This document shows, in pieces, positions 20,680-28,088 of a DNA stretch of 64,000 bases (position 1 is the first letter of the stretch; every line of letters starts with the position of its first letter). The stretch lies in NCBI GenBank assembly GCA_020056965.1, contig JAGVGT010000072.1, positions 6,197-70,196 on the forward strand. Direction: 5' to 3'. This stretch comes from Deltaproteobacteria bacterium. GTDB lineage: Bacteria; Desulfobacterota; Desulfobulbia; Desulfobulbales; JAGXFP01. The notes beneath the pieces were generated by a model. The model saw only the letters and a list, made by a program, of their open reading frames with translations. It ran no database searches and was not told the DNA's origin. Both the position numbers and the translations under genes were made by a program.

Positions 20680-21864
20680 ATGGACAAGATCAAAAATCCC
20701 TTTTCGCCAGGTGCTGGGTCTCCACCTCCAGAACTTGCTGGTCGCGCCGGTATTATGGAACAAGCCAGTGTGCTGTTGGGGCGAGTGCGCGCCAATCGGC
20801 CGGAAAAGAGCCTCTTGTTGACAGGGCTGCGCGGGGTTGGGAAGACCGTTTTGCTTAATGAGATTGATCGACTGGCGCAAGGCACCGGCTATCGAACCAT
20901 TATGGTTGAGGCGCATGAGGGCAAGTCGTTGGCCGTATTGTTGGCACCTCACCTCCGGCGTCTGTTGTTCGATTTGGACCGGATTGCTGGGGCCGGTGAC
21001 AAAGTGCGGCGGGGCATTGCGGTGCTTAAAAGTTTTGTCGGCGCAATTAAGATCACGGTTGGCGAGATCGACATCGGCTTGGATATTGAGCCGGAAGCGG
21101 GCGCTGCAGATAGCGGTGATCTTGAGGTCGATCTTCCCAGCCTGTTTATGGCTGTGGGCGAAGCTGCGCAGGAGCGCGGTGTTGCCGTTGCCATCCTGAT
21201 CGACGAGATTCAGTATTTCAGTTCGTCAGAGCTAAGTGCCTTGATCATGGCCATGCACAAGATGCAGCAGCGGCAGCTTCCCCTGGTGCTGATCGCTGCC
21301 GGTTTGCCGATTCTGCCGGGTCTGGCGGGGGAGTCAAAATCCTACGCCGAGCGCTTATTCAGTTTCCCAGATGTGGGTCCTTTGCCGGAACCGGATGCGA
21401 TTAAGGCTCTCCAAGACCCGGTTCTGGTGGCTGGAGAAGCGTTTGAACCATCTGCCCTGCAAGAGATTTTTCGATTGACCAAGGGCTATCCCTATTTCCT
21501 GCAGGAGTGGGGCTATCAAGCATGGAATCACGCTGCCGCTTCTCCGATTACCCTGCAAGTGGTTCAGGAGGCAAGCGAGCTGGTCTCCCTGCGGCTGGAC
21601 GAAAACTTTTTCCGGGTTAGGTTTGACCGGTTGACTCCCCGCGAAAAGAAGTTTCTGCGGGCCATGGCCGAGCTTGGAGCCGGGCCATACCGGACTGGCG
21701 ACGTTGCGGATAAGCTTGGTATAAAGATTAGCACCCTTGGGCCTCTCCGTGCCGGTTTGATCAAGAAAGGGATGGTGTATAGCCCGTCCTACGGCGATAT
21801 GGCTTTCACTGTGCCACTGTTTGATGAGTTCATGCGCCGCGCCATTCCAAATTTTGAGCCTTGA
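20680..21864 (+). CDS. Orphan AAA-type ATPase with C-terminal winged-helix (AAA_16/Arch_ATPase-like 'ATP-binding protein')
   Basis: Walker A 'GLRGVGKT', Walker B 'VAILIDEIQYF', and a C-terminal wHTH-like stretch 'LTPREKKFLRAMAELGAGPYRTGDVADKLG'. Confidence 0.7.
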   Translation: MDKIKNPFSPGAGSPPPELAGRAGIMEQASVLLGRVRANRPEKSLLLTGLRGVGKTVLLNEIDRLAQGTGYRTIMVEAHEGKSLAVLLAPHLRRLLFDLDRIAGAGDKVRRGIAVLKSFVGAIKITVGEIDIGLDIEPEAGAADSGDLEVDLPSLFMAVGEAAQERGVAVAILIDEIQYFSSSELSALIMAMHKMQQRQLPLVLIAAGLPILPGLAGESKSYAERLFSFPDVGPLPEPDAIKALQDPVLVAGEAFEPSALQEIFRLTKGYPYFLQEWGYQAWNHAAASPITLQVVQEASELVSLRLDENFFRVRFDRLTPREKKFLRAMAELGAGPYRTGDVADKLGIKISTLGPLRAGLIKKGMVYSPSYGDMAFTVPLFDEFMRRAIPNFEP

Positions 21865-22334: not shown

Positions 22335-22410
22335 GCCCTCGTAGCTCAGGGGATAGAGCACAGGATTCCTAATCCTGGAGTCGTAGGTTCGATTCCTACC
22401 GGGGGCACCA
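22335..22410 (+). tRNA. tRNA-Arg (anticodon CCT)
   Basis: Folded by hand. Acceptor GCCCTCG/CGGGGGC, D arm GCTC-AGGGGATA-GAGC, anticodon stem CAGGA/TCCTG with loop TTCCTAA, T arm GTAGG-TTCGATT-CCTAC, and an encoded CCA. Confidence 0.92.
22366..22410. repeat. attL-like direct repeat (3' 45 nt of tRNA-Arg)
   Basis: Identical to 26889-26933: 'ttcctaatcctggagtcgtaggttcgattcctaccgggggcacca'. Confidence 0.9.
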
Positions 22411-22455
22411 CAATATCAAGTAGTTACCTCGTTTGCCTCATTCATTGTCTCTTTC

Positions 22456-22491
22456 CAGTGTGCAAATTATTTACACACTGAGATTGTTTTT
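22456..22491 (+). terminator. Hairpin plus T-run downstream of tRNA-Arg, supplied by the islet
   Basis: 'cagtgtg' / 11-nt loop / 'cacactg', followed by 'agattgttttt'. Confidence 0.45.
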
Positions 22492-22687
22492 CTGAAGTTA
22501 TCTTTCTGGGTTTAATAATAAATTTGTAAATATATCAGTGAGTTGTCTCGCTTGGTGGAGATTGTGGCACCAGTATTGTCAATCCTGGAGTCGGGCGATG
22601 GATCGAGCAAGTTCTGTATCTTCAAGCCTTATTTGACTCGGCTGTTGAATCTATGCTCTTTTCAAAGTTAACCACGTGTGGCTGACC

Positions 22688-25114
22688 TTACAGGTGGAGT
22701 TGTTTTTGCTCTTCCTGAACACTGTATCCAATGGCTTTGTACCCTTGAATCCGGCGATTGTACATTCTCATGAGCATCGGAATATCTGTGTCGATGTAGT
22801 CGTAAACGCGAACCTCTTTTTTGCCGTCGAAATTTCGGTGTAGTCTGCCTGCATACTGCTGCAATGTCCCTCTCCATGAAATTGGTAGGGCCAATAGAAG
22901 GGTGTCCAATCGAGCATCGTCAAAACCCTCGCCAATGTAACGACCGGTTGCAATAAGCACTCTTTCCTTATTGTCCCCGATGTCGTCAAGGTTTTTGGCG
23001 ACCTCGGTTCTTTGCTTTTTTCCCATGCCACCTCGAAGAATTACAACATTCTTCGCTTTTCCATCCAGAAGTTCAGCTAATCGCTCCAGGTGATCCGTTC
23101 TTTCCGTGAGAACGAGCGGGGATCTACCGTCTTTTAGTGATTGCAGGACATCAGCTACGATCATCAAATTTCGACTTTCGTTGGCTGCCAGCTCTCTGTA
23201 GATTTCCTGTATTGAAGGAGTGCCTCCTGATGTTGTGATCTTAGCGTCGGTAAAGCGTGGGATCATCACGTGGTCGAATGGGCGGGCTTTTGCCGCAGAT
23301 CTGGCCTCAACTCGGAAACGTATCGGGCCGCATTGCATGAGAATAATGGGATGATGCCCGTCTTTTCTCACTGGTGTTGCCGTAAGGCCCAGAATGTATT
23401 TTGCCTTGGCCTTCTTCATGATCTGTTCGAAACTGAAGGCTGAAAGGTGGTGACATTCATCCACGATAATCTGTCCATACTCCGCAATAATATCGTTGAC
23501 CTCACCCTTTCGGTAAAAGCTTTGCAAGATGCCAATGTCAAGGCGTCTGGTGGGTTTTTTGCTGCCTCCTCCTATCTGCCCGATATCTTTTTCAGGAATA
23601 TCAAGGAAAGATGCCAACCTTTCTCGCCATTGATCCAGGAGCTGACGGCGGTGAACCAGGATCAGGGTGCTGCGTTTTCTCACAGCGATGAGCTTTGCCG
23701 CGACCACCGTCTTGCCAAAGGCGGTGGCTGCGCTAAGGATGCCTGTATCGTGTGATCGCAACGCCTTGACCGCTGGGATTTGTAGATCACGCAGACGACC
23801 TTTGAACGAGACCTCTAATGGTTTCCCTGTGGTTCGTTCATCTTGTATTGCGAGTTCGATATTAATGCTGCTAAAGAGCTCGGCGGCATCAGTCAGGCAT
23901 CCACGGGGAAGACCGATATGTTTGGGGAAATCTTCTGAGCAAGAGATAACCCGAGGCTTGTCATAGGTCGGTAATCGCATTGCCTGAAATTTGTAAAAGT
24001 CGGGATTTTGAAAGGCAGCAAGTCGGATTAATCTGTTTTGAAGGGCTGGCGGCAAACCCTCCTTTTCGATGTATAAAAGGTCGGCAAGAACTGCTTTGAT
24101 CATTGCTGGTAGCGGGCCTTTTATGATGGGCTCTATCAGCTTGGCGGAAGGCGGCAGTGTCCAGGGATCATCATCAACTTCGTCGCTGGTCTGACTTATC
24201 CTAACTCCAATAACTTCGCCTTTTCTGGTCGCATCTTGAGCAATTAATTCAAGCTCGTGGCCTGATATCGAGCGTACACCGGAAAGAAACGCCCATTGGT
24301 CAGGATAAGGATGGAAGTTCTCATCAAGAAAGACACTGTTTCCCTTTTCTCTTGGCCCCTTTTGTAAAGGCAAGGCAATGAGATTGCCGAATCCCCCTTT
24401 GGGCAGAGTGTCTTGATTCGGAAAAAGGCGGTCATATGAGTCAAGTCCGATCTGGTGGCGTTTCTCCATAGTGATTGTAAGAATGTAGCACCCAACCTTG
24501 CGGGCGATGGAGGCTTCGACTGGTTTAGAAAAGAAAATCCACACATGGCCACCATTTCCGGAGCGGGATCTTTCAAGAATTGCTGGTACCCCGAGGTTTT
24601 TGCAGCTCTCTAAATATTCAGCGACGTCTTCCTGCCATGTCCTTTTGTCAAAATCAGCAGCGAGGAACCAACAAGTGTCGTTCTGAAGCAAGGGATAAAC
24701 CCCGACAGTGTGTTTGCCGACAAGATGATCGTAAATGACCTTGTCCGTAACCGGTAAGAAATCGCGATGGTCACATTGTCCGCATTTGACCCGGGGTTTA
24801 TCGCAAAAGGTACGATTCCATTCGTGCCTACAGGCTGGCGAGTATCCGGTTTTCCCGCCTTTTGTTTCCCAGCGAACGGGATAGATATCCTCTCTGCCCT
24901 TAAAAAGGCGGCTGAAAATGGCAATTTTTATATCGGACGGAGAATCGTTTGTTACACCTGACTTGGAAGAATGTGAGCGAGGTGTGGTTTCTGGGGCGGG
25001 TGGGTTTTCCTGCGGTAGATTGAGGTGTTTTCTGAGGCGCTCATTTTCTTGCCGGAGTTTGGCGCATTCAGAGAGTGCCTCCTCAAGTCTTTTATGGGCG
25101 TCACTATTGTGCAT
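22688..25114 (-). CDS. Archaeo-eukaryotic primase (PrimPol-like) domain fused to SF2 DEAD/DEAH-box helicase
   Basis: 808 aa. AEP motifs are 'LAADFD' (DxD, aa 154-156), 'SGNGGHVWIFF' (sxH, H190) and 'SYDRLFP' (D228). A Cys cluster lies at C95/C104/C111/C114. Helicase motifs are 'AFGKT' (I), 'DECHH' (II), 'LTATP' (III) and 'QYAGRLHR' (VI). Confidence 0.85.
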   Translation of the reverse strand: MHNSDAHKRLEEALSECAKLRQENERLRKHLNLPQENPPAPETTPRSHSSKSGVTNDSPSDIKIAIFSRLFKGREDIYPVRWETKGGKTGYSPACRHEWNRTFCDKPRVKCGQCDHRDFLPVTDKVIYDHLVGKHTVGVYPLLQNDTCWFLAADFDKRTWQEDVAEYLESCKNLGVPAILERSRSGNGGHVWIFFSKPVEASIARKVGCYILTITMEKRHQIGLDSYDRLFPNQDTLPKGGFGNLIALPLQKGPREKGNSVFLDENFHPYPDQWAFLSGVRSISGHELELIAQDATRKGEVIGVRISQTSDEVDDDPWTLPPSAKLIEPIIKGPLPAMIKAVLADLLYIEKEGLPPALQNRLIRLAAFQNPDFYKFQAMRLPTYDKPRVISCSEDFPKHIGLPRGCLTDAAELFSSINIELAIQDERTTGKPLEVSFKGRLRDLQIPAVKALRSHDTGILSAATAFGKTVVAAKLIAVRKRSTLILVHRRQLLDQWRERLASFLDIPEKDIGQIGGGSKKPTRRLDIGILQSFYRKGEVNDIIAEYGQIIVDECHHLSAFSFEQIMKKAKAKYILGLTATPVRKDGHHPIILMQCGPIRFRVEARSAAKARPFDHVMIPRFTDAKITTSGGTPSIQEIYRELAANESRNLMIVADVLQSLKDGRSPLVLTERTDHLERLAELLDGKAKNVVILRGGMGKKQRTEVAKNLDDIGDNKERVLIATGRYIGEGFDDARLDTLLLALPISWRGTLQQYAGRLHRNFDGKKEVRVYDYIDTDIPMLMRMYNRRIQGYKAIGYSVQEEQKQLHL

Positions 25115-26030
25115 ATTTGCGCCATGGTCCTGGAGCCACCCAAACTCCAGCTTCGTGATGCTTGGATCGGAGATGCTTCACAATCGGGGTAAGGAATTCC
25201 CTGATCAACGAAATAACAACCTCAAAATTTTCTGGAGAATCCGTCTGCCCCAGTCTTTTCCTGAAGGCCTTCCATTGCTGAGATTTGATTTGCGCAAATT
25301 GATCTGAAAATGCCGGGATCTGTTCCGGGAGGTCCGTGCCGCGTTGGCGTAGTGTTTTCTCGATGGCCAGACATAGATTTTCTTCGTCAAAGTTAAATTG
25401 TCTGGCAAGCATCCAGATATCATAGAAATCCTTCATGCGGCTGTTCAACTCGCCCAGTTTGACCATGGCTTCGAACTTTTCGGCAATGGCACTTTCAATG
25501 GAGTAGCCCTGGAGGTCGGGGGCCGGAAAGTCAAGCAGGGATGGCAGCGAAATCCTTTGTGGGCCAGGGACAACAATGTCGCCAAAGCCGATATCGAGTT
25601 GCATGTTGATTCGAGCGGTATCAAGCTTGCCGATAAACCGAACCCGCACTCCATGGTAATCGGCATCTTCGGTGATTCGTTCAGCCACAATAGATTTGTC
25701 ATCAAAGGTCAAGCCATCATCCGGTTGAACTAGCGTTGTGCAGATATCCCTAACCTGCCCAATGACTATGTCGATTGCGTTGCTGGACTCCCGACCAAGC
25801 ATATCGATATCCATGGTCGCCCTCGCCAAGGGAAACTTCCATGCCCTGAGCATTAATGCGCCTTTCAGAAGAAAGGTATTAGAATGTGAGGATTGTGAGA
25901 GCCGATACAGAAATCGTTCCATAGCAAAATATTGCAACAGTTCGGCAAAAGGGCGCTGTTCCTGGCGGGCCTTATTCAGTAGCCGTTGCCGAATTGAGAC
26001 CCCGATATTTCTGGGTGTTTGGGTGGTCAT
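25104..26030 (-). CDS. abiEii: Nucleotidyltransferase AbiEii/AbiGii toxin family (type IV toxin-antitoxin)
   Basis: 308 aa. 'FLLKGALMLR', 'TMDIDM' (pol-beta-type catalytic Asp pair) and 'ESAIAEKFEAMV' are typical of DUF1814/AbiEii. Confidence 0.85.
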   Translation of the reverse strand: MTTQTPRNIGVSIRQRLLNKARQEQRPFAELLQYFAMERFLYRLSQSSHSNTFLLKGALMLRAWKFPLARATMDIDMLGRESSNAIDIVIGQVRDICTTLVQPDDGLTFDDKSIVAERITEDADYHGVRVRFIGKLDTARINMQLDIGFGDIVVPGPQRISLPSLLDFPAPDLQGYSIESAIAEKFEAMVKLGELNSRMKDFYDIWMLARQFNFDEENLCLAIEKTLRQRGTDLPEQIPAFSDQFAQIKSQQWKAFRKRLGQTDSPENFEVVISLIREFLTPIVKHLRSKHHEAGVWVAPGPWRKYAQ

Positions 26031-26620
26031 ATCAACGATTCGAGATATGGTTTCATGATATGGTCAACCCGGCAGATACGCCCGTATTTCAGCAGGAGTT
26101 CGCCGTTTCTCTTTCCCCTGGCCCCATAGAGTTTCAGGGCTTCAAGGACCACATCCATTCCCAGCTTGTTGCGGAATTTAAAACAGTCGGCTATGGTTTT
26201 CTCTGGATCGTACACCTTGACGGCTACGCCATCGATATCATGTCGCTCAATCCCGGCCTCATAAGCTTCCTGGGAAAAACGATGGGCCTCTATCGGCGGG
26301 TAATCAAGAGACGGAAGTCGATCATCCCGTGAGACTGCTATTGATACTCGGTGGGGGACTTGGGTTGTCAGTCCATGAAAGGACAGGGCGGATATAAGAC
26401 ATATCACCGCCTTGGGGTATCGCAGACAGACAGTGGCCAGGTCGGGATTGCTTATTGAGGGAAGCTCAGATAGACGATATACCCCCCTCGATACGGCGGT
26501 AATAACTTTTTGGTCCCTCAGACGGTAAAAGGCAGACCGGCTGACTCCCCCGGCAATGGCTTCGCTCATTCGCAGTTGACCACCGGCAAGCCGGAATATG
26601 TCTACGGGATTGTTTTTCAC
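26027..26620 (-). CDS. abiEi: AbiEi-family antitoxin / transcriptional regulator (type IV toxin-antitoxin)
   Basis: 197 aa. N-terminal wHTH-like 'RLRDQKVITAVSRGVYRL' and 'AVICLISALSFHGLTTQVP', typical of AbiEi. There is a 4-nt ATGA overlap with abiEii. Confidence 0.8.
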   Translation of the reverse strand: MKNNPVDIFRLAGGQLRMSEAIAGGVSRSAFYRLRDQKVITAVSRGVYRLSELPSISNPDLATVCLRYPKAVICLISALSFHGLTTQVPHRVSIAVSRDDRLPSLDYPPIEAHRFSQEAYEAGIERHDIDGVAVKVYDPEKTIADCFKFRNKLGMDVVLEALKLYGARGKRNGELLLKYGRICRVDHIMKPYLESLI

Positions 26621-26752
26621 TCTTGGGCCGATTGAAACCTTTTGTCGCCATTAGTTAATAAGTGGTGACATTATGTCTTGTCGGTTTGCCAAGGTCAAGC
26701 TCTTTCGCTTGATTAGGTCGTCAAGTATATTCCGGTCGTCAGATTGTTGGCC

Positions 26753-26816
26753 GGTGTGTGACTTGGTGTGTGACTTTTCGTAGAAAGTCTGCTAAAGGAT
26801 ATAAAATCTGCTAAAG
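26753..26816. repeat. Iteron-like direct repeats at the upstream end of the islet
   Basis: 'ggtgtgtgactt' occurs twice in tandem (26753-26776). 'tctgctaaag' occurs twice, 19 nt apart start to start (26788-26797 and 26807-26816). Confidence 0.7.
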
Positions 26817-26888
26817 TGTGTAAAATTTATCCTTTTGCTTTCGATAACTTATTGAATTTAGGCATTTATTTAGATGCCTTTGGGCGTG

Positions 26889-26933
26889 TTCCTAATCCTG
26901 GAGTCGTAGGTTCGATTCCTACCGGGGGCACCA
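26889..26933. repeat. attR-like direct repeat (copy of the tRNA-Arg 3' 45 nt)
   Basis: Perfect copy of 22366-22410. It has no matching tRNA 5' half upstream, so it is not a functional tRNA. Confidence 0.9.
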
Positions 26934-27122: not shown

Positions 27123-28088
27123 GTGAAACACTATAGTCTACTGGGACTCGTGGTTGTTGTGGGGGTGATGCTACTGGTTCCCCGTCTGGTCTATGCCCAC
27201 AGCGCAACGGGCCCTTGTGTCGATTGTCACACCATGCACAACAGCCAGAATGGTATCATGGAGGATAGTAACGGGCCGCAGGAGAATCTGCTGAAATTAA
27301 GTTGCATCGGTTGCCACGCCCGGACCTTTAATGATTCTACTGGTCGGGCTTCTTCCGCTGGCGGACCGGCTGCCCCACAAGTCGGGCCGTTGGCTGTCAA
27401 CGGAAGTTATCAGCTTTCCGGCGGATACTTTAGCACGACAGCCAATGCAACTACTCATAACGTGGCCGATATTCCGGGTACTGCACCCGACTCGCTAATA
27501 ACGTCTAACAGTGCTCCGGGCGGAACATTTGCCTTGCAAGACGGCGCTAAGCCGAAGTTGCGCTGCAATAGCTGTCACGATTCGGCCATTCGCCATGCCG
27601 CCGCTGGTTCTGAGCGCTTCGGCACAGCCGCTAGTTCATACCGCATGCTGCACGGCACCACGGCCCCCCTGTATGTGAAAGGGACAGGGGCGGCTGATTT
27701 TGAGGCCGGAGCTACGCAGAACCTCTACGATGCCCTCTCCATCAATCGTTTTTGCGCCCTCTGTCATGGCCTTTTTCATAGTCTGACTAACACCGACAGT
27801 ATCGGTGATGGCAACGGGGCCTGGGTACGGCACCCGACCGATGTTTCCACCAGCGATATTATCAACGGCCCTTCGCCCAACTATGAAGGGGGCGATAAGG
27901 TGGTCCCGCTCGGTGACGCTGGGGCTGTTGCGGCGGGGCACACCAATCAGGTGATGTGTCTCTCCTGCCATCGGGCGCATGGGAATGCCAACTCCGACAT
28001 GCTGCGGTTCAATTATAACGTTACAGGCAATCTGGCCGGTGATGTTGCTGTCTCGCAGGGGTGTGAGACCTGTCACGGCGCGAAATAA
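27123..28088 (+). CDS. OmcS-like hexaheme c-type cytochrome (secreted)
   Basis: GTG start with a GGGGGAG RBS, and a signal peptide ending 'VYA'. Six CXXCH motifs (CVDCH, CIGCH, CNSCH, CALCH, CLSCH, CETCH). 'CVDCHTMHNS', 'APGGTF', 'CLSCHRAHG..DMLRFN' and the terminal 'CETCHGAK' parallel G. sulfurreducens OmcS as I recall it. Confidence 0.75.
   Translation: MKHYSLLGLVVVVGVMLLVPRLVYAHSATGPCVDCHTMHNSQNGIMEDSNGPQENLLKLSCIGCHARTFNDSTGRASSAGGPAAPQVGPLAVNGSYQLSGGYFSTTANATTHNVADIPGTAPDSLITSNSAPGGTFALQDGAKPKLRCNSCHDSAIRHAAAGSERFGTAASSYRMLHGTTAPLYVKGTGAADFEAGATQNLYDALSINRFCALCHGLFHSLTNTDSIGDGNGAWVRHPTDVSTSDIINGPSPNYEGGDKVVPLGDAGAVAAGHTNQVMCLSCHRAHGNANSDMLRFNYNVTGNLAGDVAVSQGCETCHGAK

Follow-up and report, generated by a model that had tools for sequence, protein, structure and literature searches.

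The 64,000-nucleotide (nt) stretch of DNA analyzed here (the window) carries, at its single tRNA-Arg(CCT) gene, an islet of 4,478 bp (positions 22411–26888) that is a site-specific insertion at the block running from the anticodon loop to the CCA end of the tRNA. We consider it probable that this islet is a horizontally acquired, nonautonomous element of the cis-mobilizable element (CIME) type, which was integrated by a tyrosine integrase encoded elsewhere and is stabilized by addiction to its own AbiE toxin–antitoxin system. The source genome (G000) is a metagenome-assembled genome of 3.08 Mb in 96 contigs and is 89.9% complete; throughout, L and G codes denote the contigs and genomes that we compared.

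The target gene (22335–22410, forward strand) was located with ARAGORN and matches the Rfam tRNA model with 68.5 bits. Its 3′ 45 nt, which extend from tRNA position 32, where the anticodon loop begins, to the terminal CCA, constitute attL (22366–22410), and a repeat search returns the same 45 nt in direct orientation at 26889–26933 (attR) with 0 mismatches and a spacing of 4523, in agreement with the preliminary description of this DNA, which had reported both the perfect recurrence and the length of the interior. The whole 3.08-Mb assembly has no other copy of the 45-mer, even when up to three mismatches are allowed, and a chance origin of the repeat is excluded. The stranded tRNA 3′ part that forms attR is followed by host DNA leading to a cytochrome gene, as at an empty site in G009, a member of the same family but of another genus, where the tRNA (67–143) is succeeded by the homologous cytochrome gene (289–1254) and a PilZ gene (1377–1778). 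The tRNA and PilZ genes lie only ≈330 bp apart in G001, which belongs to the same genus and has neither the islet nor the cytochrome gene nor an AAA ATPase gene that precedes the tRNA in the window; the search for empty sites proposed in the preliminary description thus finds them in both relatives. An insertion sequence or miniature inverted-repeat transposable element was also considered and rejected, since no terminal inverted repeats join the ends, no transposase is present, and the flanking repeat is a 45-bp piece of tRNA. A further repeat (D10, 22115/26944, 15 of 18 nt) was set aside, because, on a rough estimate, 7.5 kb of sequence should contain an exact 11-nt seed by chance alone.

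Other elements in this bacterial order occupy the same tRNA. The 45-mer, with up to three mismatches, occurs in 48 of 401 genomes (400 genomes of the order plus G000), several of which hold two copies. G074 harbors an 8.9-kb island with a 49-bp repeat, whose products include an Arm-DNA-bind_3 integrase, a capsid protein, and a PrimPol/DUF3987 protein; the 11.2-kb island of G086, with a 50-bp repeat, has genes for type IV secretion along with those for an integrase and a relaxase. Tyrosine integrases of 349 aa are encoded directly after tRNA-Arg(CCT) in G141 and G069. G234 (family f17) contains a tandem array (L118; G234:C8, 3862–10045) in which an integrase gene is framed by two incomplete copies of tRNA-Arg(CCT) at a distance of 6.1 kb, the true tRNA being located on another contig. 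Finally, G002, from the same family as the window, has an unrelated integrase-less islet of 2.4 kb at this tRNA (L016; G002:C5, 4712–7210), with a single gene for a 646-aa TPR-sulfotransferase and with an attR that has decayed through a 3-bp deletion and one mismatch. Judging from these sequences, tRNA-Arg(CCT) is a working integrase target in this order, and the integrase-bearing islands with their 49- to 50-bp repeats, together with the empty sites in relatives, bear out the earlier reading of the islet's repeats as attL and attR. The G074 element itself (L017; G074:C34, 2293–11346), given its P4-type integrase, PrimPol/DUF3987 primase, and phage major capsid gene, looks like a phage satellite or small prophage.

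The islet is compositionally foreign. Its GC content is 48.2% compared with 57 to 58% in the 10-kb flanks and 59.0% in the genome, which places it within the lowest 1.6% of the genome's 4.5-kb windows. The contrast noted in the preliminary description is therefore real, although the hand counts given there (40–45% inside versus 60–68% in flanking genes) overstated it, with values near 40% reached only by the two noncoding arms of the islet. A segment carried by all relatives at host-like composition, which that description had held to be incompatible with integration, is not what we observe, given the absence of the islet from G009 and G001 and the GC difference from the genome. Members of the islet family described below have 43 to 49% GC everywhere, a value that equals that of the host only in the low-GC contig L027. 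The islets of the window and of L027 differ by ≈4 GC points (48.2% versus 44.6%) and their host flanks by ≈12 points, and the islet stands out by its GC content in the window but matches its surroundings in L027.

No recombinase gene accompanies the insertion. The interior holds three ORFs only, all assigned to nonrecombinase families, and domain searches reveal no nuclease or recombinase domain among the three proteins. PF00589 (tyrosine integrase) has no match on the contig of the window, PF00239 (serine recombinase) has none in the entire source genome, and tblastn with seven integrases yields no match in the window or nearby and no pseudogene remnant in the arms, all of which is in keeping with the earlier statement that no integrase, excisionase, or transposase ORF lies in or beside the islet. 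An autonomous tRNA-integrating island, prophage, or satellite can be set aside, as neither att site has a recombinase gene beside it. Elsewhere in G000, the tyrosine recombinases comprise XerC- and XerD-like proteins (contigs C95 and C86), a 427-aa integrase encoded directly 3′ of tRNA-Ala(CGC) (L015; G000:C12, 5496–6970), and two C-terminal fragments (C22, 35178–35300, and C35, 28419–28496). These share ≤31% identity with integrases that use tRNA-Arg(CCT) and were rejected as helpers; the genome search for a helper integrase with a matching att core suggested in the preliminary description thus came up empty, the 45-mer having no further copies. The tRNA-Ala(CGC) integrase locus is probably another integrated island, and the C22 and C35 fragments, which have in common NYDIRTIQ.LLGH..LK.TMI.TH, look like remnants of one integrase family.

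The cargo of the islet consists of three overlapping minus-strand genes that span 22688–26620. The promoter-proximal gene encodes the antitoxin and repressor AbiEi (26027–26620; PF13338; PADLOC AbiEi, E=6e-70) and overlaps the start of abiEii by 4 nt; the latter specifies the nucleotidyltransferase toxin AbiEii (25104–26030; PF08843, E=7.6e-46; PADLOC AbiEii, E=4.6e-99) and overlaps the start of the third gene by 11 nt. This third gene (22688–25114) encodes an 808-aa protein that joins an archaeo-eukaryotic primase (AEP)-TOTE primase–polymerase domain (PF22548, E=2.8e-103, matched over 228 of 230 profile positions; PADLOC PrimPol) to a superfamily 2 (SF2) helicase of the ResIII/DEAD/Helicase_C type (PF04851, E=5e-26). 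Domain content and gene overlaps show a predicted defense or conflict module in the form of a translationally coupled abiEi–abiEii–TOTE/SF2 helicase operon. Upstream of abiEi lies a candidate abiE promoter on the minus strand, TTGACC-17-CATAAT (26698–26670; 10 of 12 consensus positions), overlapping a palindrome at 26643–26670, and both promoter-like site and palindrome are kept in all four aligned islets, irrespective of the two arm types discussed below. AbiEi is known to bind inverted repeats in its promoter (PMC3985639), and the palindrome is likely the AbiEi operator.

To place the islet among related elements, we carried out a protein search with the helicase followed by look-ups of genomic context. 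The three-gene unit abiEi–abiEii–TOTE was found on six further metagenomic contigs, giving seven copies in all, none of which was found to have a recombinase. The closest copy, L025 (Logan SRR16297629), is 93% identical to the window at the nucleotide level over 4,387 bp and covers the 3′ part of the tRNA and most of the islet, and L031 (JGI) is 92% identical but partial, without ends. Three copies are more diverged: L026 (ENA; 74%) has tRNA, islet, and attR on one contig with a repeat of 44/45; L027 (JGI; 74.5%) spans cysC, tRNA, islet, attR, cytochrome, and PilZ genes and has its own perfect 45-bp repeat; and L033 (JGI; 74%) covers the left end only, within a tandem array. L034 (JGI; AbiEi 78% identical at the amino acid level) retains attR and the right arm. 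All five related contigs that reach an islet end have tRNA-Arg(CCT) sequence there. The tandem array on L033 is recognized from what lies ahead of the islet, namely a truncated tRNA copy missing its 5′ half and, farther out, the right arm of a second element. Two types of arm can be distinguished: the window, L025, and L027 have type A, and type B is seen in L026, L034, and the right arm of the upstream element on L033.

The noncoding arms of the window islet, 277 bp to the left and 268 bp to the right of the operon (545 bp in total), reveal a modular structure. The left arm contains, at 22566–22596, a degenerate copy of the tRNA anticodon arm that is conserved in all three type-A islets and that we term att*. 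The 13-mer AATCCTGGAGTCG has three occurrences in the window versus 0.01 expected, the third of them at 22581–22593 within att*, and CCAGTATTGTCAATC of att* is kept in the window, L025, and L027. A comparison of the window with L025 gives 111 of 155 identical positions to the left of att* (68–75%) and 3,966 of 4,208 to its right (88–97%; Fisher P=6e-18). Because identity jumps at this point, att* behaves as a module boundary, which is how an old attachment site left behind by accretion should behave, and the tRNA-proximal module of 155 bp (22411–22565) has its own history, distinct from the cargo's. This module also includes a hairpin (22456–22480, with a T-rich tail at 22484–22493) that is a candidate replacement terminator for the tRNA; its predicted stability is weak (−10 kcal/mol, z −1.3), and its stems recur in L025 and L027. 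On this sequence evidence, the islet is a composite in which a short tRNA-proximal module, with the tRNA 3′ part and the candidate terminator, is joined at att*, a relic att site, to a cargo module, which amends the preliminary description.

The arms also show signs of constraint. The noncoding, attR-proximal right arm (26701–26888) is 78 to 81% identical between the window and L027, compared with 47 to 65% at third codon positions and 25% in the host DNA beyond attR, which is unalignable. GTGTG occurs eight times in the 545 bp of the arms versus 0.35 expected, in a tandem pair of GGTGTGTGACTT (26753–26776) and in AGTGTGTA (26815), which are candidate binding sites for an integrase or accessory protein, as well as in an inverted pair at 22458/22474 and in one site at 22676; these motif sites recur in L025 and L027. 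No conserved ORF was found in the arms, where a 36-aa ORF (26673–26783) is broken by a stop in L025, and an Rfam search returned the tRNA as the only known RNA. These patterns are signs that the arms are under constraint and suggest that the ends of the element still matter. In the type-B arms of L026, L034, and the upstream element on L033, the terminal 59 to 61 bp are 86 to 88% identical to the attR end of the integrase-bearing island of G141, and the left arm of L033 has weak similarity (68% over 92 nt) to the tRNA-proximal arm of that island. A CIME would be expected to relate to its parent element in this way. No match to the type-B motifs was found in the viral collection, and no similarity was found between the islet arms and the G074 and G086 islands. 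Neither arm of the window islet has a further copy in its own genome.

Several observations speak for horizontal acquisition of the islet and against its vertical inheritance, among them the GC comparison and the L033 tandem array described above. The repeats of the window and of L027 each equal the tRNA of their own lineage; five positions distinguish the two tRNAs, compensatory T-stem changes among them. From the third-codon identity of 0.47 to 0.65 between the window and L027, the probability that 45 neutral bases stay unchanged in one lineage is ≤6e-5. The attR of the unrelated G002 islet, with its 3-bp deletion and its mismatch, illustrates how a decaying repeat looks. The more distant host of L027 has the islet and G001, a closer relative, does not. 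Despite 93% identity of the islets, 4 of 24 aligned nt in the tRNA segment of L025 differ from the window; this 29-nt segment is that of tRNA-Arg(CCT) in G035, G024, and G033 (families f10, f14, and f8, respectively) and in none of the 11 genomes of the window's family that we searched. We take this tRNA variant as sequence-level evidence of recent spread of the islet between families.

In the mechanism that we propose, the islet would have entered the single tRNA-Arg(CCT) gene by recombination of the tyrosine-integrase type, with exchange in or near the anticodon loop, such that the identity block extending to CCA rebuilds the tRNA at the left and leaves the old 3′ part at the right as attR. 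Integration and any later excision would rely on the integrase of another element that uses tRNA-Arg(CCT), acting in trans or, following the CIME model (PMC5704250), in cis once elements have accreted in tandem and are excised through their outer sites. The L033 array, the att* breakpoint, and the tRNA variant beside the 93% identical copy L025 lend indirect support to such mobilization by a tandem or coresident element. AbiE stabilizes plasmids, and a related system stabilizes the integrative and conjugative element (ICE) SXT (PMC3985639); AbiE likewise stabilizes a Streptococcus suis ICE, whose excision is modulated by AbiEi (PMC11062541). Extrapolating from this published biology, AbiE addiction would make it costly for a cell to lose the islet, also when the 45-bp repeats recombine with each other, and this would explain the persistence of integrase-less copies.

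Of the three options left by the preliminary description, namely a decayed remnant, an element mobilized by others, or a mini-element of a type that encodes no recombinase, mobilization by an outside integrase is favored over a remnant decayed in place because none of the seven copies has an integrase, a 93% identical copy adjoins a tRNA variant known from other families, conservation of the arms exceeds the neutral level, a tandem array exists, and the type-B ends match an integrase-bearing island. Several points weigh against this reading. The proteins of the islet (68–85% identical) and of the host flanks (74–80%) are similarly diverged between the window and L027, which, taken alone, suggests a fit to old vertical descent. 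No integrase-bearing element with type-A arms was found in the source genome; no relatives of the type-A arms occur in 41 related genomes, only chance-level matches of 22 to 31 nt were obtained in 400 genomes of the order (the best, 26 nt in G196, is not beside a tRNA), and pattern scans of metagenome and viral collections returned no exact match. The source genome, at 89.9% completeness, yields only the XerC/XerD-like proteins, the tRNA-Ala(CGC) integrase, and the two fragments. L025 is a contig of just 4.4 kb, and the tRNA segment on it may come from the element instead of from a host. Finally, the repeats could be kept identical by gene conversion, with no integrase involved.

Some of the same points would fit an immobile remnant, in which an integrase-bearing island in an ancestor lost its integrase by deletion and has since been inherited vertically, with occasional loss, as a fixed defense locus. 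This scenario draws on the lack of an integrase in or near the islet, on the similar divergence of islet and flank proteins at the same locus in L027, on the failure to find a helper integrase or relatives of the arms, and on the precedent of a decaying integrase-less islet at the same tRNA in G002. We regard it as unlikely, however, in that the window and L027 have perfect lineage-specific repeats despite saturated neutral sites, the GC content of the islet is unameliorated (48% versus 59%) next to flanking genes at host GC, and the islet is missing from the closer G001 but present in the more distant host of L027. The 93% identical copy beside a tRNA variant of other families, the conserved arms, and the L033 tandem array speak against it as well.

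Cycling without any integrase is a further alternative, in which host homologous recombination over the 45-bp block, through a Campbell-type crossover of a circle or through deletion, would insert and remove the islet, with spread by transformation or transduction and homogenization of the repeats by the same route. It would accommodate the absence of an integrase from all seven copies, the match of the repeats to the tRNA of each host, which crossover or conversion anywhere in the block would produce, and the breakpoint between window and L025, which falls in another tRNA-like stretch. Yet RecA-dependent exchange has a lower length limit close to 45 bp, and the repeat starts exactly at the anticodon loop, as it does in the integrase-bearing islands at this site. 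Moreover, homologous cycling offers no reason for conserved noncoding arms with repeated motifs, nor for the match of type-B arms to the end of an integrase-bearing island, and we judge it quite improbable.

An assembly chimera, in which the islet of another organism in the sample was threaded into the contig via a common tRNA sequence, would be in keeping with a 96-contig metagenome-assembled genome, with the atypical GC content of the islet, and with related contigs such as L025 that break at the repeats. Such a chimera is highly improbable, as it needs two precise joins and as the independent JGI contig L027 has the same insertion between syntenic cysC–tRNA and cytochrome–PilZ flanks, while L026 has tRNA, islet, and attR on one contig; the concern raised in the preliminary description that the repeat might be an assembly artifact is thereby largely allayed.

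Homologues of the TOTE helicase place the third gene in a broader context. Those on L028, L029, L030, and L032 share 71 to 77% identity with the window protein and have no AbiE, with other small modules as neighbors: HigB/HTH, PIN/PhD, PIN/HTH, and an AAA_15/AAA_21 protein with DUF4276. A role as obligate partner of AbiE or of tRNA sites was rejected, since homologues of 54 to 77% identity occur solo or beside pairs of the HigBA or VapBC type; the TOTE helicase seems to travel with interchangeable toxin–antitoxin or defense partners. A distant clade on metagenome contigs L042, L043, L051, L087, and L088 keeps the order abiEi–(abiEii)–TOTE, with a TOTE protein that is 44% identical, ≈1030 to 1060 aa long, and extended by a C-terminal PLD nuclease domain, and with AbiEii missing or broken in several copies. 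A tRNA-Asn(GTT) gene lies ≈0.1 to 1 kb away from these cassettes, around which neither an integrase gene nor flanking repeats were seen. The idea that the AEP primase–helicase, with or without AbiE, itself supplies a novel tRNA-targeting insertion or replication mechanism could appeal to this recurrent linkage beside a tRNA but is the least credible of the alternatives, given that the 54 to 77% identical homologues occur alone among housekeeping genes or beside other toxin–antitoxin pairs, the contig or the 10 kb to each side being free of tRNA genes, that the tRNA-Asn copies lack a flanking repeat, that the three window proteins lack a nuclease or recombinase domain, and that integrases demonstrably use the tRNA-Arg(CCT) site.

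The surroundings of the tRNA vary on both sides. A gene for a 394-aa AAA_16/AAA_22 ATPase (20680–21864; GC 56%, host-like) lies between cysC and the tRNA in the window and is absent from G001 and L027, where cysC is ≈210 to 235 bp from the tRNA, while G005 has a 78% identical homologue; because this gene is present or absent among relatives, the upstream side is also variable. The gene for a 321-aa multiheme cytochrome (27123–28088) just after attR is missing from G001 and has counterparts of ≈50% identity in G009 and L027, and its absence from G001 indicates gene loss or replacement beside the hotspot.

Islets that are flanked by att sites and lack an integrase are invisible to island finders keyed to recombinases, and the one described here carries a complete defense operon and, on the evidence above, crossed family boundaries. 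If it is true that integrases of other elements mobilize such cassettes, this would provide a cheap route for the spread of defense systems and would also explain stacks of small defense modules at tRNA genes. With defined arms, a relic att site, and candidate helper integrases, the islet could serve as a model for how toxin–antitoxin addiction preserves nonautonomous elements. A more ambitious proposal, which we advance only tentatively and regard as doubtful, is that AbiE–TOTE islets are not debris but form a dedicated lineage of miniature integrative elements that hitchhike without an integrase, with conserved arms that recruit unrelated tRNA-Arg(CCT) integrases, an AbiE system that defends the host and punishes loss, and a primase–helicase that may replicate the excised circle.

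Among known systems, the tRNA-integrated islands of G074, G086, G141, and G069 share with the islet the target gene, the identity block (45 bp in the islet versus 49–50 bp), the rebuilt tRNA, and the stranded old 3′ part; they differ in having their own integrase, encoded beside attR in G074 and G086 and beside the tRNA in G141 and G069, which the islet lacks. As in AbiE type IV toxin–antitoxin systems, the islet has adjacent overlapping genes for AbiEi (winged helix-turn-helix, COG5340-type) and AbiEii (DUF1814 nucleotidyltransferase), the pair that identifies such systems, along with a promoter palindrome and a location on a mobile element of the kind that AbiE stabilizes. It departs from them in the third, translationally coupled gene for an AEP-TOTE primase/SF2 helicase, known here from its sequence. 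The AEP-TOTE primase–polymerase domain that marks TOTE conflict systems (PF22548) is present in the 808-aa protein, and our literature search found no paper describing a TOTE system.

The closest counterparts are the CIMEs related to ICESt1 and ICESt3 of Streptococcus thermophilus (PMC5704250, section 2.3; PMC10201445). Like these, the islet has attL and attR at a tRNA 3′ end and no integration or transfer genes, and its family shares with them addiction or defense cargo, a relic att site inside the element, a tandem array, and an arm type whose att-proximal end matches an integrase-bearing island. Thus, both the att flanks that result from site-specific integration and the lack of its own integration/excision and transfer genes, by which CIMEs are defined, are found in the islet, and ends in common with an autonomous element (the G141 island) are found for its type-B relatives, with no partner found for the type-A arms in the genomes and collections scanned. 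Structurally, then, the islet appears to fit the definition, with derivation from a parent indicated for the type-B relatives only. ICEfinder found no CIMEs in 23,213 chromosomes (PMC10201445). The streptococcal CIMEs come from Firmicutes, whereas the islet belongs to an uncultured lineage of the sulfate-reducer type, and type-A arms have no known parent ICE or integrative and mobilizable element. The kind of element, a hitchhiking, integrase-less islet flanked by att sites, is already known; new here are the conserved three-gene cargo, the two arm types, the relic internal att site, and the evidence of recent spread between families. A further difference from CIMEs is that the integrase-less state of the islet, which we know from sequence, is common to a whole family at 74 to 93% identity, and it thus looks like a stable lifestyle rather than a one-off product of decay.

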